Virus record (IMG/VR): IMGVR_UViG_2541047712_000002 | From: a virus | Taxonomy: Duplodnaviria > Heunggongvirae > Uroviricota > Caudoviricetes | Direction: 5' to 3' (one strand) | Length of the DNA stretch: 64,000 bases | Part shown: positions 1 to 64,000 of the stretch, one piece after another | Position numbering within the stretch: the stretch's first letter is position 1 | Layout of the letters: the number at the start of each line of letters is the position of its first letter | The notes under the pieces: model-generated | The model's database searches: none | What the model was told of the DNA's origin: nothing | Seen by the model: only the letters and a program-made list of their open reading frames with translations | Made by a program: the position numbers and the translations under genes

Positions 1-14
1 TCAAGGATGAAACA

Positions 15-713
15 ATGGGAATTAAAGCTGATATTCAGAGCTTATCTCCCTCTGCACTCATTGAGTTGTTCGTACTGGATATGTCGAACACAACTTCAGG
101 GGGGAAGCTATTCTTCCACGCCGGAACAAACGAACTGATGCAACCGGTCGTCTGGCAAGGAGTGACATACGAGCCGTGGCCAATCAAAGCATCAGGCTTT
201 GACAAAACTGGCCAGGGAACGTTGCCACGTCCAAAAATTCAGGTATCGAACTTTGCCGGAACTGTCTCTGCGGAAGTTCAGGCAAACGACGATCTTGTTG
301 GCTGCCGCATTATTCGCAAGATGACGCTGGCTCGCTTCCTCGATGCCGTTAATTTTAAAGACGGCAACCCAACAGCAGATCCAAACCAACATTTCCCGGA
401 TGAAATGTGGTTTATCGAACAGAAAACTCTCGAAACTCATCAGGTTGTCGAGTTTGAATTGTCCAGTGTGTTCGATTTGATGGGGGTGCAACTGCCGTAT
501 CGTCAGATCATTAAAAACACCTGCCCGTGGAAATACCGAGGGCCAGAATGCGGCTATACCGGCCCATATTTCGACAAAAATAACCAGCAGACGTCTATGT
601 CTGGTGCTGATTACTGCACAAAACGTTATGACGCCTGTAATGCGCGTCGGAATTATTTTGCCGACGGTGTGATCCATTTTGGCGGATTTATTGGAGCTAC
701 GCGGTATGGGTAA
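15..713 (+). CDS. minor tail protein L (lambda gpL-like tail tip assembly protein)
   Basis: 232-aa ORF with gpL-like pattern (VTYEPWPIKASGF, RFLDAVNFKDGNP, C-terminal Cys cluster CPWKYRGPECGY...CTKRYDAC); followed by K, I, J-like genes in lambda order. Confidence 0.7.
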   Translation: MGIKADIQSLSPSALIELFVLDMSNTTSGGKLFFHAGTNELMQPVVWQGVTYEPWPIKASGFDKTGQGTLPRPKIQVSNFAGTVSAEVQANDDLVGCRIIRKMTLARFLDAVNFKDGNPTADPNQHFPDEMWFIEQKTLETHQVVEFELSSVFDLMGVQLPYRQIIKNTCPWKYRGPECGYTGPYFDKNNQQTSMSGADYCTKRYDACNARRNYFADGVIHFGGFIGATRYG

Positions 714-1503
714 TAAAGCAATCCCTGAGCTTGGCTCTGACGTTATGCAGCAAATCTATCTCTGCGCCATAAATCGCTACCCTAATGAAGCGTGTGGCTT
801 TCTGGTTAGAACTAATGGCGACAAATATCGCTTTATGGAAGCGCGGAATGTTTCGGAGAACCCGCAGAACACTTTTGTAATGCACGTTGACGACATTATG
901 GCGGCAGAGGATGCGGGTGATGTTATCGCAATCTGGCATTCACATACTGATGAATCAGCAGAAGCATCTGATGCCGATCGTGCAGGCTGCGAAGCGACGG
1001 AAGTTCCGTGGATGATTCTGGCTATTCGCAAGAATGTTGAGGGAGATGCCCCTTTCCATTTTAGCGAGATGAATGTGATCACACCTGATGGTTTCGAAAT
1101 GCCATACCTGGGCAGACCGTATGTATTTGGCGTATTCGATTGCTGGATGTTGTGTCGGGACTATTTGAAGCGTGAGTTTAACGTCGAACTAAACCCGAAC
1201 GCACACCTGCATATTCCATCGTGGTACACCGGCGATAACGACATTCTCGACCAGAACTACCGAAACGAAGGATTGGTACGGCTTGCGCCCGGAACAGAGC
1301 CTCAACGTGGGGACATCTTCTTTATCCAATACGGGAAAATGCCTGACCACTGCGCGGTTTATATCGGCGATGGAATGATTCTTCATCACCAGATCGACCG
1401 CCTTAGTTGTCGTGCTTATTACGGCGGAATGTATCAGAAACATACGACGCATCACTTGCGTCACAGAGACTTGCTCAAGGGAGATGAGACGTGTCTGAGT
1501 TAG
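679..1503 (+). CDS. tail assembly protein K-like (JAMM/MPN plus NlpC/P60-type domains)
   Basis: 274-aa ORF overlapping the end of the L-like gene; HxH-type metal motif (IWHSHTDESAEASDAD) and downstream Cys/His-containing segment typical of lambda gpK family; exact start uncertain. Confidence 0.6.
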   Translation: MADLLELRGMGNKAIPELGSDVMQQIYLCAINRYPNEACGFLVRTNGDKYRFMEARNVSENPQNTFVMHVDDIMAAEDAGDVIAIWHSHTDESAEASDADRAGCEATEVPWMILAIRKNVEGDAPFHFSEMNVITPDGFEMPYLGRPYVFGVFDCWMLCRDYLKREFNVELNPNAHLHIPSWYTGDNDILDQNYRNEGLVRLAPGTEPQRGDIFFIQYGKMPDHCAVYIGDGMILHHQIDRLSCRAYYGGMYQKHTTHHLRHRDLLKGDETCLS

Positions 1504-2084
1504 TTCATGTGCAGCTTGGCGGCCCTATGGCCAAACATTTTGGCCGCCACTGGCATCTAAAGGTGCGTAATACAAAACAGGCTCTGGATTTAATTGAGGC
1601 TAACAAGCCTGGGTTTAAAGCATGGATGAAGCGCAACATCAAAACCTATGACAGATACCACATCCAGATCACCAATAAACAGGGTCACAAGTGGTCTGTG
1701 GACGAGAGTGAATATCAGATGATGGGGCAGTCTGACAACATTGCCAAAATACGCATTACCCCTGTTCCGCGAGGGAGCGGCGGATCTGCTTTTGGGTGGT
1801 TTCAGACGGTAGTAGGGGCCGCTTTGTTGGTTGTATCGGCGGTAATGATGCCTGCTTTAGCACCTCTCGGTTTGTCACTGATGATGGGCGGTATATCACA
1901 AATCATATCGCCGCAAGCCACTAACGAAAGTGTGAGACAGGCAGATAACTCGAACTCTTATTATTTCGACGGCCCTCAAAATACAGAAAACCAGGGCAAC
2001 CCAGTACAACTTATCTATGGCGAGGAAATTCTGGTTGGCTCACAGGTTGTGAGTTCTTCAATCACGATTGACCAGCTAATGTAA
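1491..2084 (+). CDS. tail assembly protein I-like
   Basis: 197-aa ORF; ubiquitin-like N-terminus and hydrophobic Gly/Ala-rich C-terminal half (GGSAFGWFQTVVGAALLVV...YYFDGPQN) as in lambda gpI; position between K-like and J-like genes. Confidence 0.6.
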   Translation: MSELVHVQLGGPMAKHFGRHWHLKVRNTKQALDLIEANKPGFKAWMKRNIKTYDRYHIQITNKQGHKWSVDESEYQMMGQSDNIAKIRITPVPRGSGGSAFGWFQTVVGAALLVVSAVMMPALAPLGLSLMMGGISQIISPQATNESVRQADNSNSYYFDGPQNTENQGNPVQLIYGEEILVGSQVVSSSITIDQLM

Positions 2085-2095
2085 ACAAGGATTTT

Positions 2096-5000
2096 TTGAA
2101 CATGGAACAGTTCAAGAAGAAAAAGCTACCGCTGTTTATTGCCGGTGCGGGTGGTAAAAAAAGCAGCAAAAGCTCCAGCCGTACACCGGTTGAAGCCGAC
2201 GATACCGTAAATTCTCGTGCAATGGCCGCTATCCTCGATCTTCTTGGGGAAGGGGTAATTGGCGGCTTAGTAAATGGCGCAAGATCTATTTTTATCGACG
2301 ATCTGCCGATTGTAAATGAAGACGGTTCCTCAAACTTCAGCGGAATCACATGGGATTTTCGCGACGGTTCGCAAGACCAGACTCCAATGTCTGGCTTTGA
2401 TTTCGTTGAAACGCCTAAATCCGTCAATATCCAGTTAAAAAAAACACATTATGTAACGGTTTCAATCGATAACGATGAAGCTGATCGGGTTCGTGTCATC
2501 ATGAAGTTTCCTTCTTTGCGAAGCATAGATAAAAAAACTGGTGACACGAACGGTACAACCGTTGAGTACAAGTTCCAGATAGCAAATGGCGACTCAACAT
2601 TTGTAGATGTGGTCGCAGAAGGTGAAAAAAGCGTTGGCATTAAGCTAACTGCAAAGAAGACAGGTGTTTATTACCGTAGCTATGAGCTGAAGCTGCCTAA
2701 GCCTGGACGCGCGTACAAGGTTCGTGTAGTCCGTATTACCGATGATAACAGCAGCCAGTATCTCTATAACGATACATGGGTGGACTCAATAGGTGAGATT
2801 GTAGATACACCGATGAACTACCCAAACTCTGTGCTGGTGGGTCTGAAGGTTAATTCTGAGCAATTTGGTAGCACCATGCCATCTCGTTCGTATTTGGTGC
2901 GTGGATTAAAAATTCGCGTGCCGTCAAACTACAACGAGGCCAGCAACACTTATGATGGTGTATGGGATGGCACTTTTAAGCTGTTGTCTTCATCCAATCC
3001 AGCCTGGATTCTTTTCGACCTGTTAACGAATGAACGATATGGGCTTGGCCAATTTGTATCAGAGTCCATGATTGACCTCGGCCAGCTGTACCAGATCGGT
3101 CGATATTGTGACGAAGAGGTTGATGATGGCTTTGGTGGCAAAGAGAAACGTTTTGCAATCAATACGCAGATTACCAGTCGACAGGACGCATACCGACTAA
3201 TTCAGGATATTGCTGGAGCATTCCGCGGCATGGTGTTTTGGGCTGGTGGGATGGTTAACATCATGCAGGATAGCCCATCAGATCCGGTAATGATGTTTAC
3301 CAACTCTAACGTCAAAGATGGATTGTTTACCTATAAAGGTTCTGCGCGTAAAGATCGCCCATCCGTTGCGCTCGTAACCTACAACAACAAGGAGGACGGT
3401 TATAAGCAAAACATCGAGTACGTTGAAGATCAGGACGCAATGCGCCGTTATGGTGAGCGTAAGACAGAAGTCGTAGCATTTGGCTGTACAAGCCGAGGGC
3501 AGGCTCACCGAGTTGGTTTGTGGCTTTTATATACCGCCAGAATGGAGTCGGATGTAATTACATTTACTGCCGGCTTAGATGCGTCATTCCTGATGCCTGG
3601 TGAAACCGTTCTGATTCAGAACAAATATCGCGCAGGAAAGCGCAACTCCGGTCGAATTGTGGAGTTTACCAAAAACAGCATCACACTCGATGCGCCTGTG
3701 TCATTAGCTAAAAGCGGCAGCTTTATTCGGATATTGAATCAGGAAGGCAAAATCGTTGAACGCGATGTTCTTGAAACTGGCGAAAACATAACAAAGGTTA
3801 CGTTTTCAAAAGCCCTGTCGTCAGCGGAAACGCCTGTTTTGAACGGTGTCTGGACAATTACAGAACCAGATCTCGAACCTATGCGCGTTCGCATCGTTAA
3901 CATCGCGCAGGGGGAAACGCCGGGTAGCTTTGACATCACCGCTGTTGAGAACAATCCGTCTAAATATGAGGCAATCGACAATGGTGCAACGCTGATCCCG
4001 CAGAATACGACGGTATTGGACCCAACTTACTCCAAGCCATCTAATCTGCAAATCACTGAAGGGACTTATCTCTCAAGCCCGGGCAACCTGTCAGTAAAAC
4101 TGACTGCAACATGGGAAGGGAAATCTCCAGAGTATTGGATCAGTTGGCGACGTTCTGATGAAAACAATGTATCGAACTGGCAATCGGCGCGTGTAACCGA
4201 AGAGCAATACGAAATCGTTAATGTCGCGGAGAATGGACGCTACGACTTCCAGCTGTATGCGGTTTCATTCAACGGTAAAAAAACAGAGATTATCAGTACC
4301 GTTTATCAGGTGTTGGGCACAATGACACCGCCGGATTCCCCAACGTCATTAACGGCCGTTGGAGACTATCGTAATGTGATACTGAATTGGGTTAATCCAG
4401 ATTCGGTAGACCTTGATCACATTAATGTTTACGCATCCCAGACCAACAATCTGGATACAGCGAAACTGATCGCAGAGTCTGCAAGCACCACCTTTACACA
4501 TGCTGGTCTTGGGGATAGCGAAACGTGGTATTACTGGGTTCGAGCGTCGAACAAGCGAGGTATGTTAAGTCCTCCGAACTCAAACTTGGGGACAGAGGCG
4601 ACAACTCGCGATGTACTGTCGTTCCTGACAGGCAAAATTACGTCTTCTGAACTTGGCCAAGGTTTACTTGAGGAAATCGACTCAAAAGTATCTCAGGAGG
4701 CGGTGGATTCCATCTATGAACAGATGGATGAAAGTCTGAAAAGCCTTGATGACAAGTTTACAGAGACAGATCGGCGGCTTGAAGAAGCTCAAAACGATCT
4801 TAAAACGGATGTTTCCAGTACTGTAAGCAAGGTGGAAGACGCTCTTAAGGAAGTTGAAAACTCTAACGCTGCTTTAATTCAGTTGCAGGAAACTGTATCA
4901 GAGCAGGGCAAAGCTGTAGCTGGAGCTGTTGAGGCGGCAAATGCAGCACTTGACAATTCATCGGCTTTAATCGCGGAGGAACGTGAAGCACGAGTTGAGG

Positions 5001-6262
5001 GTGACTTGGCAAACGCGAAAGAAATCGAGGCGATGAAGTCAACTGTAGATAGCAGTTTAGCCACCATTGAAGAAATGAAAAAAACCGTGGCTGAAGTTGA
5101 GCGTTCCAGTGCCGAAGTGACAACAAACATTGAAGCATTGGCTAAAACAAACATCGATCTTGCTTTGCGTCAGGATGAAGATCAGCACAAGCAGATGGTG
5201 AGTAATGCGAAGATCACCACAACTCAGAAGGCTTTTGCAGACGATATGTCTGCAATGGCTACGAAAATGGAAGAAATTCGCGCTGAAATAAATGAGGATA
5301 TCAGAGCTTCAATCACTGAAGAAACAACGGCTCGTGTAGATGCTGATAATGCTATTGCAAGCAGAATCACCAAACTTGAATCAAAGATTAACGATGATAT
5401 TTCTGCCGCAATTGTGAGTGAACAAGAGGCACGAGCTAGTGCCGATGAAGCACTTTCAAAAGAAATACTATCGTTACAAGCCAAAATTGAAGGCGATATT
5501 AGTGCAGCTATATCTGAAGAAAAAATTGCCCGAGCAACTGCTGATGAATCTTTAGCACAACAGATAACCACATTGAAGAGCCAGACGGGTAAAGATATTA
5601 AGGCGGCTGTAGCAGAAGAGACGAAAGCCAGAACTGACGCTGATTCGGCTTTGGCTTCTAGTATCACTAATCTACAGGCGCAAACGAGCAAAGATATTAA
5701 TGCCGCGATTACGTCTGAGGCGACTGTGCGCACAAACGCCGACAATGCTCTAAGTGGACGAATTGACACCTTAAAAGCATCAGTTGATGGAAATACAGCG
5801 ACAATTCAAGAGCAGGCAACTGCTATTGCTGATACTAACAAAAAGGTTTCAACCGCGTGGACGTTGAAGATGGAAACGTCAACAAGTGGTGGGCAAAAAT
5901 ATGTCGCAGGTATTGCGCTTGGAATTGACACCACGGGGCTTTCCCAGTTTTTGGTGCAAGCAGATCGATTTGGTCTAGTCAACTCAGTTAACGGAAAGAT
6001 CACCACACCATTTGTTATCGAAAACAGCGTTGCATACATGAATGGTGCGTATATTAAGGATGGTACTATCACAAATGCAAAGGTAGGTGACTTGCAATCA
6101 ACAAACTTCGTAAGCGGACGAGCCGGATGGCGATTTGGTAAAAATGGAACGCTTGAGATCAACGGCAATAGTGGCGGCAATGGGAGATTGGTTATAAATG
6201 GTCAGAGGATTGACGTTTATGATGACAATAATGTCCTTCGAGTGAGGATTGGTCAGCTTTGA
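2096..6262 (+). CDS. central tail fiber / host specificity protein J-like
   Basis: 1388-aa ORF immediately after L-K-I genes; N-terminal region typical of gpJ family; C-terminal third is fibrous with five tandem 33-aa repeats. Confidence 0.7.
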   Translation: MNMEQFKKKKLPLFIAGAGGKKSSKSSSRTPVEADDTVNSRAMAAILDLLGEGVIGGLVNGARSIFIDDLPIVNEDGSSNFSGITWDFRDGSQDQTPMSGFDFVETPKSVNIQLKKTHYVTVSIDNDEADRVRVIMKFPSLRSIDKKTGDTNGTTVEYKFQIANGDSTFVDVVAEGEKSVGIKLTAKKTGVYYRSYELKLPKPGRAYKVRVVRITDDNSSQYLYNDTWVDSIGEIVDTPMNYPNSVLVGLKVNSEQFGSTMPSRSYLVRGLKIRVPSNYNEASNTYDGVWDGTFKLLSSSNPAWILFDLLTNERYGLGQFVSESMIDLGQLYQIGRYCDEEVDDGFGGKEKRFAINTQITSRQDAYRLIQDIAGAFRGMVFWAGGMVNIMQDSPSDPVMMFTNSNVKDGLFTYKGSARKDRPSVALVTYNNKEDGYKQNIEYVEDQDAMRRYGERKTEVVAFGCTSRGQAHRVGLWLLYTARMESDVITFTAGLDASFLMPGETVLIQNKYRAGKRNSGRIVEFTKNSITLDAPVSLAKSGSFIRILNQEGKIVERDVLETGENITKVTFSKALSSAETPVLNGVWTITEPDLEPMRVRIVNIAQGETPGSFDITAVENNPSKYEAIDNGATLIPQNTTVLDPTYSKPSNLQITEGTYLSSPGNLSVKLTATWEGKSPEYWISWRRSDENNVSNWQSARVTEEQYEIVNVAENGRYDFQLYAVSFNGKKTEIISTVYQVLGTMTPPDSPTSLTAVGDYRNVILNWVNPDSVDLDHINVYASQTNNLDTAKLIAESASTTFTHAGLGDSETWYYWVRASNKRGMLSPPNSNLGTEATTRDVLSFLTGKITSSELGQGLLEEIDSKVSQEAVDSIYEQMDESLKSLDDKFTETDRRLEEAQNDLKTDVSSTVSKVEDALKEVENSNAALIQLQETVSEQGKAVAGAVEAANAALDNSSALIAEEREARVEGDLANAKEIEAMKSTVDSSLATIEEMKKTVAEVERSSAEVTTNIEALAKTNIDLALRQDEDQHKQMVSNAKITTTQKAFADDMSAMATKMEEIRAEINEDIRASITEETTARVDADNAIASRITKLESKINDDISAAIVSEQEARASADEALSKEILSLQAKIEGDISAAISEEKIARATADESLAQQITTLKSQTGKDIKAAVAEETKARTDADSALASSITNLQAQTSKDINAAITSEATVRTNADNALSGRIDTLKASVDGNTATIQEQATAIADTNKKVSTAWTLKMETSTSGGQKYVAGIALGIDTTGLSQFLVQADRFGLVNSVNGKITTPFVIENSVAYMNGAYIKDGTITNAKVGDLQSTNFVSGRAGWRFGKNGTLEINGNSGGNGRLVINGQRIDVYDDNNVLRVRIGQL
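5288..5782 (+). repeat. five tandem 99-nt (33-aa) coiled-coil repeats inside the J-like gene
   Basis: protein units INEDIRASITEETTARVDADNAIASRITKLESK / INDDISAAIVSEQEARASADEALSKEILSLQAK / IEGDISAAISEEKIARATADESLAQQITTLKSQ / TGKDIKAAVAEETKARTDADSALASSITNLQAQ / TSKDINAAITSEATVRTNADNALSGRIDTLKAS. Confidence 0.7.
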
Positions 6263-6355
6263 TTGTGGAAAAAAATAATCATTTCTGTAAAAATAGGTAG
6301 GTACTAACTTAATGGTGGGCATGGAACGCCCACCATATCTAGGAGCAAAGGATAA

Positions 6356-8743
6356 ATGTGGTACAGGGAAGGTACAATAAATCTCACTAAAGGAAATAAA
6401 ACTGTAGTGGGAACAGGCACAGCCTGGGGGGTGACGGCGAACGGCGTCCTTCCAGGTATGATATTGATTGGCCCCGATAATAAGTTATATGAAATAAAAT
6501 CAATCGAGAGTGACACTTCGTTAACTCTTGTTGAAGCCTACGGTGGTAGCACCCAAACAAATGTCCCGTGCAGAATAATTACGACCTATGAAGGTGATTT
6601 AACCCAATTTAGTGCTCGTTTTACTGCGCTTATGTCTCGCATGTCAGCCGATTCAAAAATGATGCGTAGTTGGTTGACTGCCGTGGATGAAATAACAATT
6701 GAGCGTGAAGATGGCACGGAATTAACCGTAAAATCCCTTACGCAGATCGTTAATGAGCACAATGAGAACCTAGAATGGTATAAAGAAAATACTCCCATAA
6801 TTAACACCGCTGCACAAAAAGCTAAAGAGGCGGCAGCGAGCGCAACAGCGGCCAAAAAATCAGAAACTAACTCAAAAGCGAGTGAGACAGCTTCAAAGAC
6901 TAGCGAAACTAATGCGAAAAATAGCGAGGTAGCTGCAAAATCGAGTCAGAGTGCTGCCGCAAACTCCGCTACCGCAGCAAAAAACAGCCAGGATGCAGCA
7001 GCCGAAAGCGAGAGTGCTGCAGCTGGTTCTGCGACTTCAGCAGCTGGATCAGCAACTGCTGCGGCTAACAGCCAGAAAGCCGCGAAGACGAGCGAAACTA
7101 ACGCAAAGTCCAGCCAGACGGCAGCGAAGACCAGCGAAACAAATGCCAAAGCCAGCGAAACTGCGGCGAAAAACAGTCAGGATGCAGCAGCCCAAAGCGA
7201 GAGTGCCGCAGCTGGTTCTGCAAGTGCGGCGGCTTCTTCTGCCTCTGCATCAGCCAACAGTCAAAAAGCTGCAAAAACCAGTGAAACCAACGCAAAGGCG
7301 AGCGAGACTGAGGCGGCTAACTCAGCGAAAGCATCGGCAGCAAGCCAGACGGCTGCAAAAGCAAGTGAAGACGCAGCCAGAGAGTATGCAAGCCAGGCTG
7401 CGGAGCCGTATAAACAAGTTTTGCAGCCGCTTCCCGATGTGTGGATACCGTTTAACGATTCACTGGATATGATTACGGGCTTTTCGCCGTCATATAAAAA
7501 GATTGTTATTGGTGATGATGAAATAACGATGCCTGGCGATAAGGTTGTAAAGTTTAAACGCGCATCAACTGCCACATATATCAATAAATCAGGCGTATTT
7601 AGTGTTGCTAAAATTGATGAGCCACGATTTGAAAAAGAAGGTTTATTGATTGAAGGACAGCGCACTAACTATTTTGTTAAATCCAATATCCCCGCTGAAT
7701 GGACGAGTACCAGCAATATCGATAAAACTAATAATGGTGTTGATGAATTTGGTTTTTCATATGCCAAAATGCGAACAAAAGATAATATGACAGGACAATC
7801 ATCTGCACTTAGTCTGCATACATGCAGTGCATCCCGGGGGATTGATGTTAGTGGCGATAATAAGTATTGCACTGTTTCATGCAGGGTTAAAGCTCCTGAT
7901 GGTCTTCGTTGTCGTTTGCGTTTTGAAAAATACGATGGGTCGGTTTATACATTTTTAGGAGATGCTTATTTAACTTTCGGAACTCTGATAATAGAAAAAA
8001 CTGGCGGAGCAGCCAATAGAATAGCAGCTACTGCAACTAAAGATCCGGTTACAGGGTGGATTTTCTATGAGGCAACTATAGAAGCTGTTGAAGGTGAAAC
8101 CTTAATTGGCGCAATGATTCAGTATGCGCCGAAAAAAGGTGGTGTAACTGAAGCGGGAGATTATATTTACCTTGCAACACCACAATTTGAAAACGGCGGA
8201 TGTGCTTCATCTTTTGTTATTACGACAACTGTACCCGCAACCCGCTCCAGTGATATGGTGACGATCCCAACTGAAAATAATATCTATAATAGACCGCTTA
8301 CGTGCCTGGTCGAGGTTAATAGAAATTGGGGCGATATTCCTCCTAATGTAGCACCGCGTATTTTTGATTTTTCTGGTGTGCCACCTATTGAGTCAATTAC
8401 ATACGCTTTTAACACAACTGAGAAATATTACGGTCAGCTTTATATGCAAACTTATAAAGCGTCGACAAGTACTTACGTTTCTAGTGTGTTTGCTGGTCGA
8501 ACTGATGTTCGAAAATTCATTGGTGGTTTTAATATTTATTCTGATGGTACTAAACGAGTAGTTTCTAACGGTGAGGCTACTAAAACCATGAAAACGGAGT
8601 GGACGGGCGTAAAAACACGGACCTTTATTCGAATTGGAGGTCAAGCCACATCGGGAACTCGTCATCTATTCGGCCATTTGAGAAATCTTCGTCTCTGGCA
8701 TAAAGAATTAACTGATGCGCAAATGGGGGAGAGTATTAAATGA
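6356..8743 (+). CDS. tail fiber protein with internal Ala/Ser/Thr-rich repeat region
   Basis: 795-aa ORF downstream of J-like gene; central low-complexity duplicated module (AAKNSQDAAAESESAAAGSA...ANSQKAAKTSETNAK...); globular C-terminal half. Confidence 0.5.
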   Translation: MWYREGTINLTKGNKTVVGTGTAWGVTANGVLPGMILIGPDNKLYEIKSIESDTSLTLVEAYGGSTQTNVPCRIITTYEGDLTQFSARFTALMSRMSADSKMMRSWLTAVDEITIEREDGTELTVKSLTQIVNEHNENLEWYKENTPIINTAAQKAKEAAASATAAKKSETNSKASETASKTSETNAKNSEVAAKSSQSAAANSATAAKNSQDAAAESESAAAGSATSAAGSATAAANSQKAAKTSETNAKSSQTAAKTSETNAKASETAAKNSQDAAAQSESAAAGSASAAASSASASANSQKAAKTSETNAKASETEAANSAKASAASQTAAKASEDAAREYASQAAEPYKQVLQPLPDVWIPFNDSLDMITGFSPSYKKIVIGDDEITMPGDKVVKFKRASTATYINKSGVFSVAKIDEPRFEKEGLLIEGQRTNYFVKSNIPAEWTSTSNIDKTNNGVDEFGFSYAKMRTKDNMTGQSSALSLHTCSASRGIDVSGDNKYCTVSCRVKAPDGLRCRLRFEKYDGSVYTFLGDAYLTFGTLIIEKTGGAANRIAATATKDPVTGWIFYEATIEAVEGETLIGAMIQYAPKKGGVTEAGDYIYLATPQFENGGCASSFVITTTVPATRSSDMVTIPTENNIYNRPLTCLVEVNRNWGDIPPNVAPRIFDFSGVPPIESITYAFNTTEKYYGQLYMQTYKASTSTYVSSVFAGRTDVRKFIGGFNIYSDGTKRVVSNGEATKTMKTEWTGVKTRTFIRIGGQATSGTRHLFGHLRNLRLWHKELTDAQMGESIK
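6814..7390 (+). repeat. duplicated ~180-nt Ala/Ser/Thr-rich module inside tail fiber gene
   Basis: two near-identical copies of ...AAKNSQDAAA(E/Q)SESAAAGSA...SANSQKAAKTSETNAK(S/A)S(Q/E)TAAK... in the translation; the out-of-frame Arg-rich ORF 6951..7472 is a by-product. Confidence 0.6.
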
Positions 8744-9021
8744 AAGATTTAACGCTCAAATTTGCAGACAGGGCCGACTTTTCGGCCTTTATGGAGAGTA
8801 TTGGCTATTATGATGACGAGTCGATGCAGGATGATATTCTTATCGACGTGATAGGTAACGTGTACAAAGAAACCGGAGAACTGACTGAAGATGGCGAACC
8901 GGTATGTGTTAAGGAGGACGGATATTTTGTAAACGTGCGCATCATTAATGATGCAAAAAAATCGTCAATATTCGATAAATACGCGATTGTTGTTGAGCAT
9001 CAACTTCGTGGCTGGATGTGA
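8740..9021 (+). CDS. hypothetical protein (possibly tail fiber-associated)
   Basis: 93-aa ORF, start overlaps stop of the upstream fiber gene (translational coupling); no recognisable motif. Confidence 0.3.
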   Translation: MKDLTLKFADRADFSAFMESIGYYDDESMQDDILIDVIGNVYKETGELTEDGEPVCVKEDGYFVNVRIINDAKKSSIFDKYAIVVEHQLRGWM

Positions 9022-9030
9022 GGGAGACAA

Positions 9031-9735: not shown

Positions 9736-9745
9736 AGGAGGAATA

Positions 9746-10030: not shown

Positions 10031-10199
10031 TATAAGATTAACTGAGATATAGCTTACGCAAAGAAGGTAATAAATATAAAGAGAGATGTTCTGAGGTAAT
10101 TTATTGTTGGTGTTTAAGGTTATTTACAGATAGGTAAGTGCATACCTATATAAAAAAGATAAAATGTGATATAAATCCGCCATCCCGATTTGACTTTTC

Positions 10200-57755: not shown

Positions 57756-58325
57756 ATGAGTAAAAAAATCAGCGTAGTTGGTGTTGATCCCTCAATGAGC
57801 AACTTTGGGCTTGCTGTGGGCACTTTAGACCTTGAGACGGACGAACTTGAGATTCACGGCCTTACTCTTGTTGAGACTAAAGCGGGGAGTAACAAAAAGA
57901 CCGTTCGTGTGAACAGTGACGATCTGCGCCGCGCCAGTGAAATATGGCGTGTTGCGAAGCCAATCATTGATAAGGCAAATATGGTTTTTTGTGAGCTACC
58001 GGTTGGGAGCCAAAACTCTCGTTCGCAGACGTCTTACGGTATTTGTATCGGTGTACTTGCGTGTGTGGATAAGCCATTGATCCAGGTTACTCCAAACGAA
58101 ATCAAGCATTTTGTCGGCAATAAACTTACTACATCGAAAGAAGAGATTATCCAGTGGGCTACGAAAAAACACCCTAAAGCACCGTGGCTGCGTCGTAAGC
58201 AATCTGGACAGGATGTTCTCGTGAACAAAAACGAACATTTGGCTGATGCGGTGGCTGCCATCCATACCGGTATGCAAACAGATCAGTTCCGCCAGGTGCG
58301 CGATGTTCTTAAGTCTCTCATTTGA
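57756..58325 (+). CDS. RuvC-like Holliday junction resolvase (putative)
   Basis: 189-aa ORF; N-terminal ISVVGVDPSMSNFGLAV resembles the first catalytic Asp motif of RuvC-fold nucleases. Confidence 0.4.
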   Translation: MSKKISVVGVDPSMSNFGLAVGTLDLETDELEIHGLTLVETKAGSNKKTVRVNSDDLRRASEIWRVAKPIIDKANMVFCELPVGSQNSRSQTSYGICIGVLACVDKPLIQVTPNEIKHFVGNKLTTSKEEIIQWATKKHPKAPWLRRKQSGQDVLVNKNEHLADAVAAIHTGMQTDQFRQVRDVLKSLI

Positions 58326-58398: not shown

Positions 58399-60714
58399 AT
58401 GATAAGCATCGTAAAACGTAACGGCCAAACAGAGCCGTTATCCGAAGAAAAATACAACCGCGTCGTAATGTATGGCGTAGAAGGCATTCGTGGTGTAAGC
58501 GCATCCGCTGTAGCAATGGGAGCTGCGGCCAGCATTTTTGATGGGATTACCACCAGCCAGTTGCATGAGGCTTTGGTTAAATCTGCCGCTGATTTGATCT
58601 CACCAGAAGCACCAAATTACTCACAGGTGGCTGCCCGCCTGAACATTTTTAAAATCCGCAAAGATGCCTTCGGTCGTTACGACTATCCGAACTTCTACCA
58701 ACACATTGTCAAGAACGTTAACAAGGGCGTTTATGACAAGGATTTGCTGACACATTATTCGTTTGAAGAGATCGAAGAACTCGGCAATTACATTAAGCCG
58801 AAACGTGACGATCTTTTTGGCTATGCAGCTACGGTGCAGTTGCAAAGCAAATACCTCGTTCAAAACCGTGTTACTGGTGAGATTCATGAGGGGCCGCAAC
58901 ATATCTATATGCTGGTAGGCATGTGTCTGTTCCAGAATTGGGAAGACGACTGCGCTGGCAAAACACGTATGGAGATGGTCAAAGGTTTCTATGACGTTAC
59001 AAGTACGTTCAAACTGTCTCTGCCCACACCAATCATGGCCGGCGTCCGTACTCCAACCCGTCAGTTCTCCAGTTGTGTGCTGATTGAGTCTGGCGATAGT
59101 CTGAAAGGGATTAGTGCAGCTTCAGCCGCAATTATCGACTACGTTTCACGTCGTGCTGGAATTGGTATTGGTTTTGGCCGTATCCGTGCGCTGGGCAGCG
59201 AGATCCGCAATGGTGAAGCCACCCATACTGGAGTTATTCCATTCCTGAAGCATTTCCAGACGGCTGTTAAATCTTGTTCGCAAGGTGGTGTTCGTGGTGG
59301 CGCAGCAACAGCGTTTTACCCGATCTGGCATCTTGAAGTTGAAAGTCTGCTGGTGGTGAAAAATAACCGTGGTATTGATGAAAACCGCGTTCGCCATCTT
59401 GATTACGGCGTCATGAGTAACCGTCTAATGTACCGTCGACTCGTCAGAAGCGAGAACATCACTCTGTTCAGCCCGCATGATGTGCCTGATATGTACGAAG
59501 CCTTCTTCACAGACCAGGATCTGTTTGAAAAGCTGTACCATAAATACGAAGCCGATGATTCAATTCGCAAGAAGTCAGTACCTGCCATTGAGCTGTTCTC
59601 ATCTCTGATGCAGGAACGAGCGTCCACGGGCCGAATTTATATTGCGAACGTCGATCATATTAACGAGCATGGCGCTTTCATTCCTGCTCTTGCACCTGTT
59701 CGCCAGTCAAACCTGTGCATGGAGATCACTCTACCCACCCGTCCACTGGCATTTACCGACGACCCGAACGGTGAGATCGCGCTATGCACTTTATCCGCTT
59801 TTAACCTCGGAGCCATCCGTTCACTGGAGTCTCTTAAAGAGGTGGCGTTCTATGCCGTTGCTGCACTGGATTCGTTACTGGATTATCAAGACTATCCGAT
59901 GGAGGCAGCCGAAGTGCCTGCCAAAGCTCGTCGTAGCCTGGGAATTGGTGTAACCAACTTTGCTTATTACCTGGCAAAGAATGGCGTTCGTTATTCTGAT
60001 ACCGCTGGCAATAAACTGGTGCATGAAACGTTCGAAGCTATCCAGTATTACCTTCTTGACGCCAGCTGCCGACTTGCTGAAGCAAAAGGTGAGTGTGACT
60101 GGTTTGAGCAGACCAAATACGCAATTGGTCAGTTGCCGATCGACCATTACCGTTCTTCATTAGACGAAAGCGGCGAAACCAACTTTGAGTTAAAGATGCC
60201 GTGGGAAGAACTGCGTGAACGTATTGCAAAATACGGCCTTCGCAACTCCACTCTGACGGCACAAATGCCATGCGAGACTTCCAGCCAGATCACTAATTCC
60301 ACCAACGGCATCGAACCGCCTCGTGGCCCGGTGTCGGTGAAATCTTCTAAGGACGGCATCGTTAAGATGGTCGTGCCTGAGTTTGAAAAACTGAAGGAAC
60401 AGTATGAATACCTGTGGGATATGCCGGACAACCGCGGCTATCTGACAAAGGTGGCGATCATCCAGAAGTTCTTTGACCAGGCTATTTCAGCTAATACCAA
60501 CTATGACCCTTCTCGCTTTGAAGGCGATAAAGTCCCAATGATGACGCTACTGTCAGATTTGCTTCTCGCCTACAAGATGGGAGTTAAAACGCTTTACTAC
60601 CACAACACCAGAGATGGTGCAGGAAAGCGTGATGACGACGAAGCGCAGAATCCACTTACGCAAGCTGTAGCCGTCGAGCCAGAAGATGAGTGCGACGGAG
60701 CCTGCAAAATCTGA
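58399..60714 (+). CDS. nrdA: ribonucleoside-diphosphate reductase alpha subunit (class Ia)
   Basis: 771-aa ORF; N-terminal ATP-cone, active-site SNLCMEI, C-terminal Cys pair (CDGACKI). Confidence 0.8.
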   Translation: MISIVKRNGQTEPLSEEKYNRVVMYGVEGIRGVSASAVAMGAAASIFDGITTSQLHEALVKSAADLISPEAPNYSQVAARLNIFKIRKDAFGRYDYPNFYQHIVKNVNKGVYDKDLLTHYSFEEIEELGNYIKPKRDDLFGYAATVQLQSKYLVQNRVTGEIHEGPQHIYMLVGMCLFQNWEDDCAGKTRMEMVKGFYDVTSTFKLSLPTPIMAGVRTPTRQFSSCVLIESGDSLKGISAASAAIIDYVSRRAGIGIGFGRIRALGSEIRNGEATHTGVIPFLKHFQTAVKSCSQGGVRGGAATAFYPIWHLEVESLLVVKNNRGIDENRVRHLDYGVMSNRLMYRRLVRSENITLFSPHDVPDMYEAFFTDQDLFEKLYHKYEADDSIRKKSVPAIELFSSLMQERASTGRIYIANVDHINEHGAFIPALAPVRQSNLCMEITLPTRPLAFTDDPNGEIALCTLSAFNLGAIRSLESLKEVAFYAVAALDSLLDYQDYPMEAAEVPAKARRSLGIGVTNFAYYLAKNGVRYSDTAGNKLVHETFEAIQYYLLDASCRLAEAKGECDWFEQTKYAIGQLPIDHYRSSLDESGETNFELKMPWEELRERIAKYGLRNSTLTAQMPCETSSQITNSTNGIEPPRGPVSVKSSKDGIVKMVVPEFEKLKEQYEYLWDMPDNRGYLTKVAIIQKFFDQAISANTNYDPSRFEGDKVPMMTLLSDLLLAYKMGVKTLYYHNTRDGAGKRDDDEAQNPLTQAVAVEPEDECDGACKI

Positions 60715-60814: not shown

Positions 60815-61957
60815 ATGTCATATTCAACGTTCCGTTTGGGTGCTAATGATGCAACCAAAGAGCCTATGTTCCTCGGACAATCTGTCAACGTGGCTCGTTA
60901 CGATCAACAAAAATACCGTGATTTTGAAAAGTTGATTGAACGTCAATTGTCTTTCTTCTGGCGGCCGGAAGAAGTTGATATTTCGAGCGATCGCATCGAC
61001 TTCAATACGAAGCTGCGGGACCACGAACGCCACATTTTCCTGAGTAATCTCCGTTATCAAACGTTGCTCGATTCAGTTCAGGGACGTAGCCCAAACGCAA
61101 CTCTGCTGCCGCTTATCTCTATTCCTGAACTGGAAACGTGGGTTGAAACGTGGTCTTTCTCTGAGACTATCCATAGCCGCAGCTACACCCACATTATTCG
61201 TGGCATGGTGGACGATCCGAGTATTGTTTTTGACGGTATTGTTACGGATGAAGAAATCATCAACCGAGCCATCAGTATCTCTGCTGAATATGACAGGCTT
61301 TATGGGATGACCTGCGATCGCCAGTCGTTAGGCGAGAAGGAATTTGAGCGTCTGTACGTAAATGAATATGGCTGGGAGCCATATCCTTTGCACCGTCAGC
61401 TTTTCCGCACGTTAGTGTCCATTAATGCGCTTGAGGCGATCCGTTTCTATGTAAGTTTTGCATGTACGTTTGCCTTTGGCGAACGGAAGTTGCTTGAGGG
61501 TAACACCAAAATTATGCGCTTTATTGCCCGTGATGAAGCTCTGCATTGCGAAGGAACTGAACGCATGATCCGCTTCATGCGTACCGGTCGCGAAGGTTTA
61601 TTGTGGAAAGAGATTGCTGCTGATGAAGAAAACGTCATTTACGACACCATGAAATCAGTCGCCGAACAAGAAATGAACTGGGCAGACTATCTCTTCAAAG
61701 ACGGTTCGATGATTGGTTTAAACGCGGATACTCTGAAGACCTATGTAAAATACCGAACCAATCTGGCTATGAATCGTCTTGGCCTGAAGGCTTTATTTCC
61801 AGAAGTTACCACTGATCCGCTGGTCTGGATGAACAAGTGGTTGTTAACCGACACACTGCAAATTGCACCACAAGAGGCAGAGCAAAGCACATATCTGGTA
61901 GGTCAGATCGATTCTACCGTGGACAAGGCTTCTCTAAGCCAGTTTGCAGACCTGTAA
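60815..61957 (+). CDS. nrdB: ribonucleoside-diphosphate reductase beta subunit (class Ia)
   Basis: 380-aa ORF with di-iron ligand motifs ([23 protein letters not shown]). Confidence 0.8.
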
Positions 61958-62034: not shown

Positions 62035-62904
62035 ATGAACTTTACCAAACTGACTGACCACCTGAAACTTGCCACCGATCGACTCATTGGATTTAAGCCA
62101 GAACCATATGAGTTGCATGAAGGCCATGGTGTAGCCACTGAAAGTATTTACAAGATGGTCGATCAGTTTCATGAACTCTTCCAGCATCCGAGACGCGTTA
62201 TGCCGACACCAGAGCTGCTTCGTCTCCGTGCAAGCCTGATTCATGAAGAAGCTGTAGTGGAAGGTATTCCAGCCGCAATGAATGGGGATATTGAGCAACT
62301 GCTGGATGCAATGGCCGACTTTTTATACGTTGGTGTTGGTACGATGGTCTCCATCAAAGGTGGTATTTCTACCGGCATGACCTATTACACGCAGGAGCAG
62401 AGCATTGATCGCTTTATGCAGACAATTTTTGTGCCCGGTAACACTGTTTTCGATGATATGGCAATGCCATTTCAGGAAGCTCGTGAGGCGTCATGTATGC
62501 TCGAAGAGCTGGCAGATAAACTTGAGAAGAAGACTGTTAAGGATTCTGAGCTGATTCAGGAACTGCGCCGTGTAATGAACAAAATCTATGTGGCGTGCAT
62601 GATGACTTATCGACTGGCTGATTTCCTCGGTATCAATGTCGTCGAGCTGGTTGGCGAAATTCATCGGTCTAACATGACAAAATTATGGCCTGCTGATGTT
62701 GAGGAACGTCGCCAGGCTGTGGCCAACTGCAAATACGACTCTTCAGATCTGGGATTCCGCCATGCTGATGGCACCGATAAGATGATCGGTTTTCGAATTT
62801 CCGATGGAAAGATTCTGAAGTCTCCAACCTATAGTGATGTCGATTTATCCTCCTTTGTTGAGCAAGCTAAAGCCTCAGCAATGTACGGAATGATCAAAAA
62901 ATAA
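62035..62904 (+). CDS. hypothetical protein (nucleotide-metabolism context)
   Basis: probable start MNFTKLTDH with RBS (aaggaac); the track ORF 61837..62904 overlaps nrdB and is an upstream extension. Confidence 0.4.
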   Translation: MNFTKLTDHLKLATDRLIGFKPEPYELHEGHGVATESIYKMVDQFHELFQHPRRVMPTPELLRLRASLIHEEAVVEGIPAAMNGDIEQLLDAMADFLYVGVGTMVSIKGGISTGMTYYTQEQSIDRFMQTIFVPGNTVFDDMAMPFQEAREASCMLEELADKLEKKTVKDSELIQELRRVMNKIYVACMMTYRLADFLGINVVELVGEIHRSNMTKLWPADVEERRQAVANCKYDSSDLGFRHADGTDKMIGFRISDGKILKSPTYSDVDLSSFVEQAKASAMYGMIKK

Positions 62905-62962
62905 TTGTAGGTAGTTATCTATCTGTGTATATTTAACATGCGTAATAAAACTCTGGAATGAC

Positions 62963-62987
62963 TATTCGTTTTGGTGGCCTATGGCCA
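62963..62987 (+). terminator. rho-independent terminator
   Basis: TGGTGGCC-TAT-GGCCACCA followed by TTTTTTT. Confidence 0.6.
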
Positions 62988-63074
62988 CCATTTTTTTATC
63001 TGTCTGGTCTTGTTCTCTCAATGAATGTAAACTCACACGATGAATAAGTAATTACTTATCTTTGTGAGGTTTTT

Positions 63075-64000
63075 GTGTCACTCCTTTTGAATCGAGAGCA
63101 TACGAACGGTCAGGTAACAAACGCATCGTATGCAAAAGTTATTGAGACGGTGCTTAAAAGCGGCGTGCAGGCTGATGATCGCACAGGCACTGGCACTTTA
63201 AGCACCTGCTACGTTCCCTCTTACTACATGCTTACTGGTGGGACTGTGCCGCTTATTTCTGGAAAGGCGGTAAATCTTAAGCCACTACTTGTCGAACTTG
63301 AGTGGTATCTGAAAGGCACGGGCAACATCCAATTTCTCAAGGATAACGGCGTTAAGATTTGGGATGCATGGGCCGATGAGAATGGCGATTTGGGGCCGGT
63401 TTACGGTAAGCAGTGGCGTCGATGGGAAGATACCCGCATCGTGAGCCATAGTGAATATCTGAGCAAGATCGCTACTTTCCGTGAACGCGGGTACAAAGTC
63501 GAGGGATACCTGGGTATCAGTGAAGATCGCGTAGTGCTGTCCCGTGAAATCGATCAGCTACAGCGTATTGTCGATACACTGCGCACGAACCCTACCGATC
63601 GTCGCATCATGCTTAACGCATGGAACGTAGGCGAGCTTGAGGATATGAAACTGCCACCTTGCCACTTTGTCTTCTCTTTGTGGAGTCGTGAGCTGGATTT
63701 TGAAACCCGTTTAACGATGGCAACTGACATTGGTCTTCAACACAGTCGCCTCGGTTACGAGTCTATCTACACCAAGATGCTATACGATCTGGAGATGGAC
63801 GGCAGTGTTACTGAAGCTGAACTGGATGAACTTGGAATCCCCAAACGCATCCTCAACTCCTGCCTCGTACAGCGTAGCGTAGACACTTTTGTTGGTATGC
63901 CATTCAATATTGCTGGCTATGGCATTCTCACTCATTTTCTCGCGAAGATTACGGGTCACATGGCCGGTGCATTTGTGCATTTTGGCTTTGACGTGCATTT
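63075..64000 (+). CDS. thyA: thymidylate synthase (ThyA), 3'-truncated by window end; GTG start
   Basis: GTG-initiated frame with motifs DRTGTGTLS, NGDLGPVYGKQWR, RRIMLNAWNVGELEDMKLPPCHF (catalytic Cys) and MPFNIAGY; ~50-aa insertion relative to the E. coli enzyme; continues past position 64000. Confidence 0.75.
   Translation, partial: MSLLLNREHTNGQVTNASYAKVIETVLKSGVQADDRTGTGTLSTCYVPSYYMLTGGTVPLISGKAVNLKPLLVELEWYLKGTGNIQFLKDNGVKIWDAWADENGDLGPVYGKQWRRWEDTRIVSHSEYLSKIATFRERGYKVEGYLGISEDRVVLSREIDQLQRIVDTLRTNPTDRRIMLNAWNVGELEDMKLPPCHFVFSLWSRELDFETRLTMATDIGLQHSRLGYESIYTKMLYDLEMDGSVTEAELDELGIPKRILNSCLVQRSVDTFVGMPFNIAGYGILTHFLAKITGHMAGAFVHFGFDVH

Follow-up and report, generated by a model that had tools for sequence, protein, structure and literature searches.

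A 64-kb Escherichia sequence very probably derived from an SSU5-supergroup phage-plasmid

The 64,000-nt stretch of viral DNA analysed here (the window) very probably covers about 60% of one phage-plasmid of Escherichia belonging to the SSU5 supergroup, described as the largest set of related phage-plasmids, most of them IncFIB and of siphovirus type (PMC7969092). What this analysis demonstrated is the gene content, the synteny and the near-identity to validated relatives; an extrachromosomal state and virion production by this particular copy are what we infer. Judged by sequence likeness, the nearest kin appear to be pLF82/Cyrano, pECOH89-like and pTHO-010-2-like elements. A sequence-only reading had called the DNA a phage-plasmid, a call that is supported by collinear closed plasmids and by the SSU5 and Cyrano phage records, and had likened its content to an SSU5/pHCM2/pMT1-type group. 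In the literature this group is the SSU5 supergroup, but the lineage is that of E. coli/Shigella and not pMT1 proper; we place it above the subgroup level (pSLy3 versus SSU5_pHCM2).

Results

Phage genes of the window

All eleven components listed by the sequence-only reading were recovered using Pfam, PHROG, NCBIfam and PDB searches, ARAGORN, Rfam and iteron counts (Table 1). Neither end of the element and no head, portal or terminase genes lie within the 64 kb.

Table 1. Features of the window, with coordinates, strand and supporting match
Feature	Coordinates	Strand	Basis or remark
Tail L	15–713	+	PF05100, E 1e-96
Tail K	706–1503	+	JAB + NlpC/P60
Tail I	1491–2084	+	phrog_32
Tail J	2102–6262	+	Phage-tail_3, FNIII-A_GpJ, Phage_Tail_Tip
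Side tail-fibre/host-range module	6356–10030	+	phrog_1419, Peptidase_S74
Side fibre	6356–8743	+	
Small ORF in fibre module	8740–9021	+	
Fibre-domain protein	9031–9735	+	endosialidase-chaperone domain
Last ORF of fibre module	9746–10030	+	
Holin-like gene	10200–10535	+	
Endolysin	10522–11241	+	phrog_873
Rz i-spanin	11243–11494	+	phrog_1026, E 7.5e-25
Rz1-type o-spanin ORF	11415–11630	+	overlaps Rz; lipobox-like ISGC read from translation
GNAT toxin, AtaT/KacT-type	11663–12184	-	PDB AtaT (6AJM, 6GTS), KacT (5XUN), E 3e-79 to 1.6e-74
TacA/DUF1778 antitoxin	12192–12461	-	PF08681, E 5.5e-26
ParA, small Walker-type	12780–13448	+	MipZ/AAA_31/CbiA; NF041546
ParA partner, 119 aa	13448–13807	+	probable ParG-like
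DnaB-like helicase	15991–17331	+	Pfam
Primase	17341–18594	+	Pfam
ATP-dependent DNA ligase	19987–21309	+	Pfam
tRNA cluster Asn(GTT), Tyr(GTA), Ser(TGA)	22898–23512	+	ARAGORN, Rfam
Low-GC cargo island with chaperone-usher fimbrial operon	25501–31397	+	Pfam
PapB-like regulator	26591–26887	+	Pfam
Fimbrial subunit	26999–27640	+	Pfam
Fimbrial chaperone	27693–28361	+	Pfam
Fimbrial usher	28306–30735	+	Pfam
Secreted protein, 171 aa, fimbrial island	30750–31265	+	
Tyrosine recombinase	31529–32632	+	Pfam
HTH repressor-like protein	32627–33013	-	Pfam
CobT-like vWA protein	33576–35684	+	Pfam
AAA_5 (dynein-related) family ATPase	35780–37015	+	Pfam
DnaE Pol III alpha	37196–40714	+	Pfam
UvsY-like protein	42666–43097	+	weak match
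gp32-type SSB	43215–44243	+	PF08804, E 1.7e-66
5'-3' exonuclease	44253–45248	+	
RecA	45517–47856	+	intein-bearing
LAGLIDADG intein in RecA, 422 aa	45709–46974	+	
Iteron replicon	50600–52800	-	repA + iteron arrays
Further array, about ten iteron-like sites	50650–51290		mixed orientation; mostly downstream of repA, one copy inside repA 3' end
RepA	51084–52139	-	Rep3 WH1 + WH2 domains
Upstream iteron array 1	52205–52301		upstream of repA; roughly five iterons, about 21 bp apart
DnaA box	52414–52422		between/around upstream arrays
AT-rich stretch, 70–80% AT	about 52500–52560		between/around upstream arrays
Upstream iteron array 2	52584–52682		upstream of repA; roughly five iterons, about 21 bp apart
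SbcD	53782–54867	+	
SbcC	55097–57013	+	
RuvC-like resolvase	57756–58325	+	
NrdA	58399–60714	+	
NrdB	60815–61957	+	
PRA-PH protein	62035–62904	+	
ThyA	63075 to 64000	+	cut off by window end

The genes at 15–6262 (+) are predicted from their domains to form a lambda-type tail tip (L/K/I/J), of which L, K and I are 99–100% identical in amino acids to Cyrano and 90–97% to SSU5. Forty of the 41 backbone proteins shared with Cyrano show 94–100% amino-acid identity; the exception is J, with its host-range part (85%, and 88% to SSU5). The adjoining side-fibre module is variable, being missing in pTHO-010-2, Cyrano and SSU5; lambdoid phages of Escherichia, among them PhiR49_1, Tritos and 2G7b, match it at 89–95% nucleotide identity. 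Holin, endolysin, Rz and Rz1 are annotated in the Cyrano and SSU5 records at positions matching the lysis cassette of the window.

The DNA metabolism had been described as T4-like. This holds for gp32, a weak UvsY-like match, SbcCD (presumably gp46/47-like), RNR, ThyA and Grx, but not for the bacterial-type RecA, the DnaE polymerase and the DnaB-like helicase. The PRA-PH protein is one that we take to have a MazG-type fold. The P-loop of RecA is interrupted by a homing-type intein.

Plasmid maintenance genes

Twenty of the 32 iteron-like 13-mers of the whole window fall inside 2.2 kb (50.6–52.8 kb), and with a stricter pattern there were 10 matches where 0.8 would be expected, bearing out the iteron replicon that had been read from the sequence. 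The iteron consensus is about CTCTATAGTGGAT. For comparison we used the P1 oriR-repA-incA layout as reference. As in P1 and RepFIB-type replicons, a Rep_3-family initiator gene has iterons immediately upstream, these adjoin a DnaA box, an AT-rich stretch and GATC-rich repeats (the last also between or around the upstream arrays), and a second array lies mostly downstream of the initiator gene. Unlike in P1 or RepFIB, the upstream array is doubled, and this doubling and the iteron consensus are peculiar to the group of the window. RepA is identical to that of Cyrano and 91% identical in amino acids to that of SSU5, and gave no significant match to solved initiator sequences in a PDB search. Relatives of the window are typed IncFIB, and its plasmid matches IncFIB or rep_cluster_488.

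The proposed ParA partition pair was also found. ParA, 100% identical in amino acids to Cyrano and 91% to SSU5, scores 115.7 bits with NF041546, below the cutoff of 180 bits. Its adjoining 119-aa partner, for which family and fold searches gave no detectable match, has relatives solely on SSU5-type elements about 110 kb in size. Its N-terminal tail is basic and disordered, its C-terminus is helical, and the protein is probably a ParG-like centromere-binding one. No centromere repeats were identified.

On the basis of their matches, the genes at 11663–12461 (-) are predicted to encode a type II toxin-antitoxin pair. Since the pair is missing from pTHO-010-2 and SSU5, we consider it accessory. 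Its counterpart in Cyrano is expressed above the prophage background, as a moron (PMC9928086).

Cargo

The fimbrial island has a GC content of 34%, compared with 45.5% in the remaining window, and sits between grx and int, where Cyrano has CYRAN_43. It occurs in six of 5,426 E. coli genomes, each time on SSU5-type plasmids only, and is 99.9–100% alike in pTHO-010-2 and five other plasmids. The window also carries a cspA-like gene with a thermosensor leader and a candidate defence pair, PDC-M06.

Comparison with closed plasmids

Whole-sequence comparison showed the window to be collinear with both plasmids and phages. On the plasmid side, hundreds of E. coli elements that are closed, circular and non-mobilizable and measure about 105–115 kb run collinear with it at 97–99% nucleotide identity, among them pTHO-010-2 (NZ_AP022542), pEcoFMU073332c (NZ_CP017847) and p108_MLI108-3 (NZ_CP117002), which match over most of its length. 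No record identical to the window was found among the database records compared (the best had 92% coverage and 98% identity), and its full combination of modules is in no single closed plasmid record compared. Collinearity with pTHO-010-2 runs straight through the arbitrary start of that record, with just a few cargo modules swapped; the two differ at the C-terminal end of J and in the fibres, in the toxin-antitoxin slot, and at 13811–15025 and 40681–42666. The remaining siphovirus genes (terminase, portal, major capsid and tape measure) are borne by pTHO-010-2.

When the gp32-to-SbcC block was compared with 5,426 complete E. coli genomes, the matches listed or counted at about 80% identity or more were all on plasmids, which supports the phage-plasmid reading. 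The chromosomal matches sampled consisted of just a 0.6–0.7-kb SPFH gene at about 76%.

The tyrosine recombinase and the HTH protein (31529–33013) probably constitute a lysogeny or multimer-resolution module. It is not in SSU5, and the Cyrano record labels the counterparts integrase and putative repressor. A phage-integrase family recombinase adjoining a repressor-like gene could also mark an integrated chromosomal prophage in which the plasmid genes are relics, and a UK survey describes a S. Agona chromosome carrying integrated plasmid DNA that matches the SSU5 repB/parA region, without phage structural genes. We regard this as very improbable: chromosomal sequence, flanking or otherwise, is found nowhere in the 64 kb, the whole window length is collinear with circular plasmids, its long matches in the complete E. 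coli genomes are all plasmid-borne, and Cyrano, an integrase-bearing relative, is a plasmid.

That an assembler merged a phage contig with a separate IncFIB plasmid is hardly credible, and no point in its favour was found. ParA lies between lysis and helicase genes and RepA between recombination and SbcCD genes, and both placements are found again in hundreds of plasmids that were closed independently, as well as among the phage genes of the SSU5 and Cyrano records, in the same order. GC content and GC skew are likewise continuous across the window, the fimbrial island excepted.

Comparison with phages

The Escherichia phage Cyrano is plasmid pLF82 of AIEC strain LF82 (OV696614), and its gene order is the same throughout the window. 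RepA, ParA and its partner, DnaB, gp32, the repressor, the TacA antitoxin, the cspA-like gene and a HicAB-like pair are all 100% identical in amino acids, the KacT-type toxin is 99% identical, and the RecA intein is shared (98.7% in nucleotides). The window differs in the side-fibre module, in two small genes at 13850–15026, in having tRNA-Tyr where Cyrano carries tRNA-Thr, in an additional 445-aa ORF at 23693–25030 (-), and in a 5.9-kb fimbrial island that stands where Cyrano has CYRAN_43. Experiments show that Cyrano/pLF82 is a plasmid at about 5.5 copies per cell and that ciprofloxacin induces it 39-fold; siphovirus particles seen by electron microscopy were attributed to it (PMC9928086).

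Salmonella phage SSU5 (NC_018843/JQ965645), which gives the supergroup its name, keeps the backbone order from tail L to SbcC. Homologues were found there for 35 of 52 assessable window genes, mostly at 57–97% amino-acid identity (three at 32–41%), and the first 25 kb of the window match at 80% nucleotide identity across 63% of the query. SSU5 has a single tRNA and other fibres, and has no Grx, cspA-like gene, RecA intein, fimbrial island or GNAT toxin-antitoxin pair.

An SSU5-type descendant might instead have retained replication and partition while losing infectious virions through lesions inside or outside the window. Such a defective 'phage-like plasmid' is compatible with the structural and packaging half falling outside the window and with the visible defects of some close relatives, such as pTHO-010-2, which has IS2 in its tape-measure gene and a frameshifted rnhA; a passage in a report on an SSU5-like Klebsiella plasmid, predicted to be an intact prophage, likewise contrasts the authors' own results with that prediction (PMC8969562). 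We nevertheless think it unlikely. In the tail-tip, fibre, lysis and replication modules no long ORF is interrupted or shortened relative to Cyrano and SSU5, domain and profile searches detected no IS or transposase in the 64 kb, and relatives at 95–98% identity, including Cyrano and PhiR41_1 (record host E. coli K-12 MG1655), have been deposited as phages.

Discussion

For the phage-plasmid that we favour, the following life cycle can be proposed. In the plasmid (lysogenic) state the DNA would be maintained as a low-copy circle, with the Rep_3-type RepA binding the iterons that flank repA and firing the DnaA-box/AT-rich origin, while the array mostly downstream of repA probably caps copy number through handcuffing of the P1 and RepFIB kind. 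The ParA ATPase and its 119-aa partner would segregate the copies, and the AtaT/KacT–TacA pair, possibly also the second, HicAB-like pair, would penalise plasmid loss. The HTH repressor may silence the lytic genes, and the tyrosine recombinase beside it probably resolves multimers. DNA damage would lead to lytic replication with the element's own DnaB, primase, DnaE, ligase, gp32, RecA, SbcCD and RNR/ThyA, followed by assembly of a siphovirus whose tail tip is lambda-type and whose side fibres are exchangeable. Holin, endolysin and Rz/Rz1 would then lyse the cell. Head and packaging genes would lie beyond the window, where they are found in collinear relatives. Phage-plasmids of this kind, the E. 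coli lineage of the SSU5 supergroup, are already well described, and the element is an ordinary one save for some rarer cargo.

The element as an SSU5-type phage-plasmid

The sequence-only reading had placed virion, lysis, T4-like DNA metabolism, replicon, partition and toxin-antitoxin genes together in the window, and family searches recovered every item that it named. To assess its phage-plasmid call we applied the operational criteria that Pfeifer et al. published in 2021 (PMC7969092). On the phage side, the window encodes the lambda-type tail-tip proteins L/K/I/J, fibres and holin/endolysin/Rz/Rz1; head, portal and terminase genes were seen only in collinear relatives. On the plasmid side, a Rep_3 RepA with iterons and a ParA are interleaved with the phage genes as in those relatives, and the whole arrangement is collinear with closed plasmids and phage genomes, which bears out the call. 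The coordinates of individual features are collected in the table.

Comparison of the whole sequence with phage and plasmid databases returned Escherichia plasmids and the phage records of Escherichia phage Cyrano (plasmid pLF82, OV696614) and Salmonella phage SSU5 (NC_018843). Several hundred Escherichia plasmids match at 97–99% identity (megablast); they are overwhelmingly non-mobilizable, circular, ~105–115 kb long and typed as IncFIB or rep_cluster_488 by MOB-suite. Within the phage, plasmid and E. coli collections, the closest record covers 92% of the window at 98% identity. By tyPPing, elements of these types range from 85 to 134 kb (PMC12977533); the 64-kb window covers only part of its element. 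The likeness to SSU5 suggested by the sequence-only reading also held, with homologues of 35 of the 52 assessable genes found in SSU5 in conserved order. Summed identity over gene count, from gene-by-gene tblastn, gave a rough and partial figure of ~0.54, and the published wGRR between communities of the SSU5 supergroup (SSU5_pHCM2, pKpn, pSLy3 and pMT1) is 0.23–0.59 (PMC7969092). A UK survey places Escherichia/Shigella members in clades J–K, part of clade J being the pSLy3 subgroup (bioRxiv 10.1101/2025.09.12.675607). In our search, SSU5-type elements were present in ~4–5% of complete E. coli genomes. These results support assignment of the element to an already well-described, experimentally validated phage-plasmid family.

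The dual lifestyle has been demonstrated for the near-identical Cyrano/pLF82, which is present at 5.5 copies per cell; ciprofloxacin raised its DNase-protected genomes 39-fold, and electron microscopy showed siphovirus particles, matching the expected size, that were attributed to it (PMC9928086). For the element in the window, extrachromosomal maintenance and virion production are predicted.

A chromosomally integrated prophage had been named beforehand as the outcome that would count against a phage-plasmid. The window contains no chromosomal DNA. A search for the gp32-to-SbcC block in 5,426 complete E. coli genomes located it 431 times on plasmids and 101 times on chromosomes. The chromosomal figure is within one of the number of records (102) whose best identity is only 60–80%, and the three chromosomal places listed are 0.6–0.7-kb matches to an SPFH gene at ~76%. 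Long E. coli matches lay on plasmids in every case, and the six records that cover 80% or more of the 20–44-kb segment are all plasmids. Integration is therefore disfavoured. Co-assembly of a phage with a separate element carrying the replicon and partition genes is disfavoured as well: hundreds of closed records, and the phage records of SSU5 and Cyrano too, have ParA flanked by the lysis genes and the helicase, and RepA flanked by the recombination genes and sbcD.

Relatives and variable slots

Cyrano matches 66% of the first 25 kb of the window at 98% identity, and SSU5 matches at 80%; the phage records CMS-2020a and PhiR41_1 match as well. At the protein level (gene-by-gene tblastn), the Cyrano backbone is 94–100% identical, with RepA, ParA, the gene product following ParA, DnaB, gp32 and the repressor each at 100%, whereas tail protein J is at 85%. 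SSU5 proteins are mostly 57–97% identical and in the same order. Direct BLAST showed that the closed E. coli plasmid pTHO-010-2 (NZ_AP022542) is collinear with the whole window, straight across the arbitrary start of that record, with few segments replaced. Siphovirus genes make up the remainder of pTHO-010-2, among them those for terminase, portal, major capsid and tape measure. Since an IS2 copy lies inside the tape-measure gene of pTHO-010-2, a defective derivative of a phage-plasmid is the main rival reading.

Differences from pTHO-010-2, Cyrano and SSU5 are concentrated at a few slots (table). A tyrosine recombinase and HTH repressor module (31398–33477) is shared with Cyrano but missing from SSU5, and a genome announcement calls SSU5 virulent (PMC5427195), which would fit the missing module. 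In pTHO-010-2, dfrA51, a trimethoprim-resistant DHFR gene recently described in phage-plasmids (PMC12217456), occupies positions 435–911, with a single small gene between it and the preceding thyA; the matching position lies beyond the end of the window's ThyA.

Coordinates of the features discussed in the text (window positions)
Feature	Position	Strand	Details
Variable slot: J C-terminus and side fibres	4708–10127		
Lysis cassette	10200–11630	+	endolysin phrog_873; Rz-like i-spanin phrog_1026
Variable slot: toxin-antitoxin	11623–12672		
parA, small Walker-type	12780–13448		MipZ, AAA_31 and CbiA matches
Variable slot: two small genes	13811–15025		
Variable slot: tRNA region and 445-aa ORF	22898–25030		
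445-aa ORF, function not recognised	23693–25030	-	phrog_18168; absent from Cyrano and SSU5
Variable slot: grx–int	25501–31397		
Chaperone-usher fimbrial island, 5.9 kb	25501–31397		GC 34% vs 45.5%
Variable slot, against pTHO-010-2 only	40681–42666		
Complete cspA thermoregulator leader and cold-shock-domain gene	40993–41411	-	RF01766, 187.6 bits
HicB/HicA-like pair (Cyrano annotation)	41563–42411	-	PDC-M06B E 1e-32, PDC-M06A E 2e-19 (PADLOC)
Predicted 422-aa LAGLIDADG intein in recA (45517–47856)	45709–46974		Pfam Intein_splicing, LAGLIDADG_3
Iteron-like sites (~10), mixed orientation	50650–51290		mostly downstream of repA; one in its 3' end
repA, Rep_3 initiator	51084–52139	-	PF01051, PF21205
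Upstream iteron arrays, ~5 copies each, ~21 bp spacing	52205–52301 and 52584–52682		core CTCTATAGTGGAT
Perfect DnaA box	52414–52422		between upstream iteron arrays
AT stretch, 70–80%	~52500–52560		between upstream iteron arrays

Layout and DNA metabolism

A mechanical ORF list placed nearly all long ORFs on the + strand, and the composition profile showed a GC content of ~44–48% along the window with a trough of 33–37% at ~26–32 kb. Family searches detected a gp32-family SSB (PF08804, E 1.7e-66), a FEN-type 5'-3' exonuclease, RecA, SbcD/SbcC-like proteins, NrdA, NrdB and a PRA-PH (MazG-type) protein, together with glutaredoxin, a DnaB-like helicase, primase, ATP-dependent ligase and DnaE; ThyA is cut off by the window end. 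ARAGORN found three tRNAs, for Asn, Tyr and Ser, where Cyrano has Asn-Thr-Ser, SSU5 only Asn and pTHO-010-2 an extra 'tRNA-OTHER'. Neither ARAGORN nor Rfam found a fourth tRNA corresponding to the latter between Tyr and Ser.

Tail, fibres and lysis

J carries the lambda-J domains Phage-tail_3, FNIII-A_GpJ and Phage_Tail_Tip, and K carries JAB and NlpC/P60 domains. In the lysis cassette, an overlapping 71-aa ORF with a lipobox-like ISGC motif shows the arrangement expected of Rz1, and the curated Cyrano and SSU5 records have holin, endolysin, Rz and Rz1 at the same places. Cyrano, SSU5 and pTHO-010-2 all lack the side-fibre module (6841–9987), which is a host-range cassette swapped between unrelated phage types. 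It is 89–95% identical at the nucleotide level to ~46-kb lambdoid Escherichia phages (PhiR49_1, Tritos, 2G7b and HannyBb).

Replicon and partition genes

The replicon combines a WH1+WH2 initiator of the Rep_3 type with clustered iterons, a DnaA box and an AT-rich stretch. A strict iteron pattern matched 10 times in the window against 0.8 expected from shuffling, nine of the 10 lying in the replicon region; with up to three mismatches, 20 of 32 window-wide matches fell within 50.6–52.8 kb. P1 and RepFIB have an oriR–repA–incA layout, and the P1 oriR carries GATC heptamers. The layout found here resembles theirs, and we infer that the downstream iteron array controls copy number. Clusters of GATC-containing repeats also occur between the two upstream iteron arrays. 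Near-duplicate blocks of GATC repeats (GGATCT/GGGTCT) at 52329–52384 and 52710–52795 flank the DnaA box and AT stretch. By analogy with the P1 heptamers, GATC repeats at the origin may act as Dam/SeqA-sensitive sites.

ParA has the small form characteristic of type Ib systems, being 222 aa long with a P-loop from residue ~3 and without an N-terminal DNA-binding domain. The centromere-binding partner in such systems is a small ribbon-helix-helix protein, encoded downstream, whose N-terminal tail is flexible. It matched NF041546 (ParA_partition) at E 1.9e-33 with 115.7 bits, under the curated cutoff of 180. Relatives of the 119-aa product of the gene that follows (13448–13807) were seen solely on contigs of the kind expected for SSU5-type elements, including ones from S. 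Typhi (presumably pHCM2), Klebsiella and Citrobacter. Two parts of the alignment are invariant: a basic N-terminal tail rich in proline and, after it, an SRTMS-x-EDE...FTRSDVIRAAI segment that, read by eye, looks strand-helix-helix-like. An AlphaFold2 monomer from an 11-sequence alignment was of low confidence (pLDDT 63), with a disordered N-terminus and an all-helical C-terminus; no Pfam, PHROG or PDB sequence or profile match was obtained, and Foldseek found no fold match in the PDB. Its sequence pattern and context make this protein a likely ParG-like centromere-binding partner of ParA. The Cyrano record labels it a 'RelE/ParE putative toxin', a label that finds no support because the partner is predicted to be all-helical. 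No centromere array was found around parA, the only candidates being two weak AGGCTATAGCC-like palindromic copies upstream.

Toxin-antitoxin and other small-gene modules

A GNAT toxin gene is immediately preceded by a gene for a TacA/DUF1778 antitoxin (PF08681, E 5.5e-26), both on the - strand and 7 nt apart. Searches against solved structures matched the toxin to AtaT and KacT, which are aminoacyl-tRNA acetyltransferase toxins, with E values from 3e-79 to 1.6e-74, and the two genes are predicted to form a pair of the AtaT-AtaR/KacT-KacA/TacT-TacA type. A PADLOC scan of the ORFs without recognised function matched the HicAB-like pair alone, as candidate defence system PDC-M06A/B, and PHROGs describe the pair as 'excisionase and transcriptional regulator'. 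Neither of its proteins matched NCBIfam, and the larger, HicB-like one had no match in Pfam. The pair adjoins the cold-shock gene locus, whose cspA-type leader and gene are present, unannotated, in Cyrano but absent from pTHO-010-2 and SSU5.

An intein in RecA

The recA gene is interrupted at the Walker A motif (GPPSAGK/CVTAD...IISHN/TFLAT). The insertion has Cys1, a C-terminal His-Asn, a +1 Thr and an embedded LAGLIDADG domain, and its removal leaves an intact host protein whose exteins are identical at 357 of 357 residues to the intein-less RecA of plasmid NZ_CP104844.1. It is thus predicted to be an intein with a homing endonuclease domain; RefSeq mislabels the whole recA gene as only a 'LAGLIDADG family homing endonuclease'. 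Of the 5,426 complete E. coli genomes, 120 carry the intein, in every case on a plasmid, which amounts to about half of the related elements found with the gp32-to-SbcC search. SSU5 lacks it. In Klebsiella phage vB_KpnS_p4727 the intein is 97.7% identical, whereas the backbone is only ~77% identical to that of the window. This is the pattern expected for recent horizontal homing, and the comparison suggests such homing across lineages; phage-plasmids of E. coli and Klebsiella appear to be exchanging this P-loop intein. A literature search of limited coverage gave no description of a RecA intein in SSU5/pHCM2 elements.

A fimbrial island between grx and int

The predicted products of the low-GC island are a regulator resembling PapB, a fimbrial subunit, a chaperone of the PapD type and an usher, together with a 171-aa protein whose N-terminus looks like a signal peptide. 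It was found in six of the 5,426 complete E. coli genomes, in SSU5-type phage-plasmids only. Beyond these six, the next usher relatives, from tblastn against plasmids, are 43–47% identical in amino acids, and a scan of one genome per species gave no close relative of the usher. The chaperone is only distantly related to the solved CupB2, Caf1M and SfaE (E 1e-5 to 1e-8). PapC/PapD pilus-assembly genes have been listed among the variable genes of the SSU5 supergroup (PMC7969092). The island may represent a hitherto uncharacterised fimbrial type circulating only on this phage-plasmid lineage. Direct kinship with the caf1 operon of pMT1 was also considered; since the usher and chaperone relatives are all distant, it is not supported.

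The pap phase-variation switch has two Dam/Lrp GATC sites. Two TGCAGATC sites lie ~116 bp apart in an AT-rich region (26322–26445) upstream of the papB-like gene, and the pair recalls those of the pap switch. No papI-like ORF was seen.

In Cyrano, the slot between grx and int holds the highly expressed gene CYRAN_43, transcribed ~700-fold above the prophage background. Since the Cyrano gene in this slot is so highly transcribed, the island could be expressed in the plasmid state, and phage infection could then convert the adhesion of a new host. The combined reading, of a new fimbrial type confined to the lineage that converts adhesion, plus an intein moving between E. coli and Klebsiella phage-plasmids, strikes us as rather unlikely to hold in full. 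Neither part alters the classification of the element.

Significance

Clinical E. coli, Shigella and Salmonella commonly harbour SSU5-type phage-plasmids; in a UK survey, the four screened Enterobacteriaceae phage-plasmid groups together occurred in 9% of E. coli/Shigella genomes. Since resistance genes such as blaCTX-M-15 and dfrA51 can ride on these elements, annotation, plasmid typing and surveillance all benefit when contigs of this kind are recognised. As the literature already describes the family, its genes and its dual lifestyle, the finding confirms what was known. What it adds is modest and concerns the cargo: the fimbrial operon is rare, the RecA intein is mobile, and modules for host range, toxin-antitoxin and defence have been swapped, which shows SSU5-type elements diversifying at a few hotspots.
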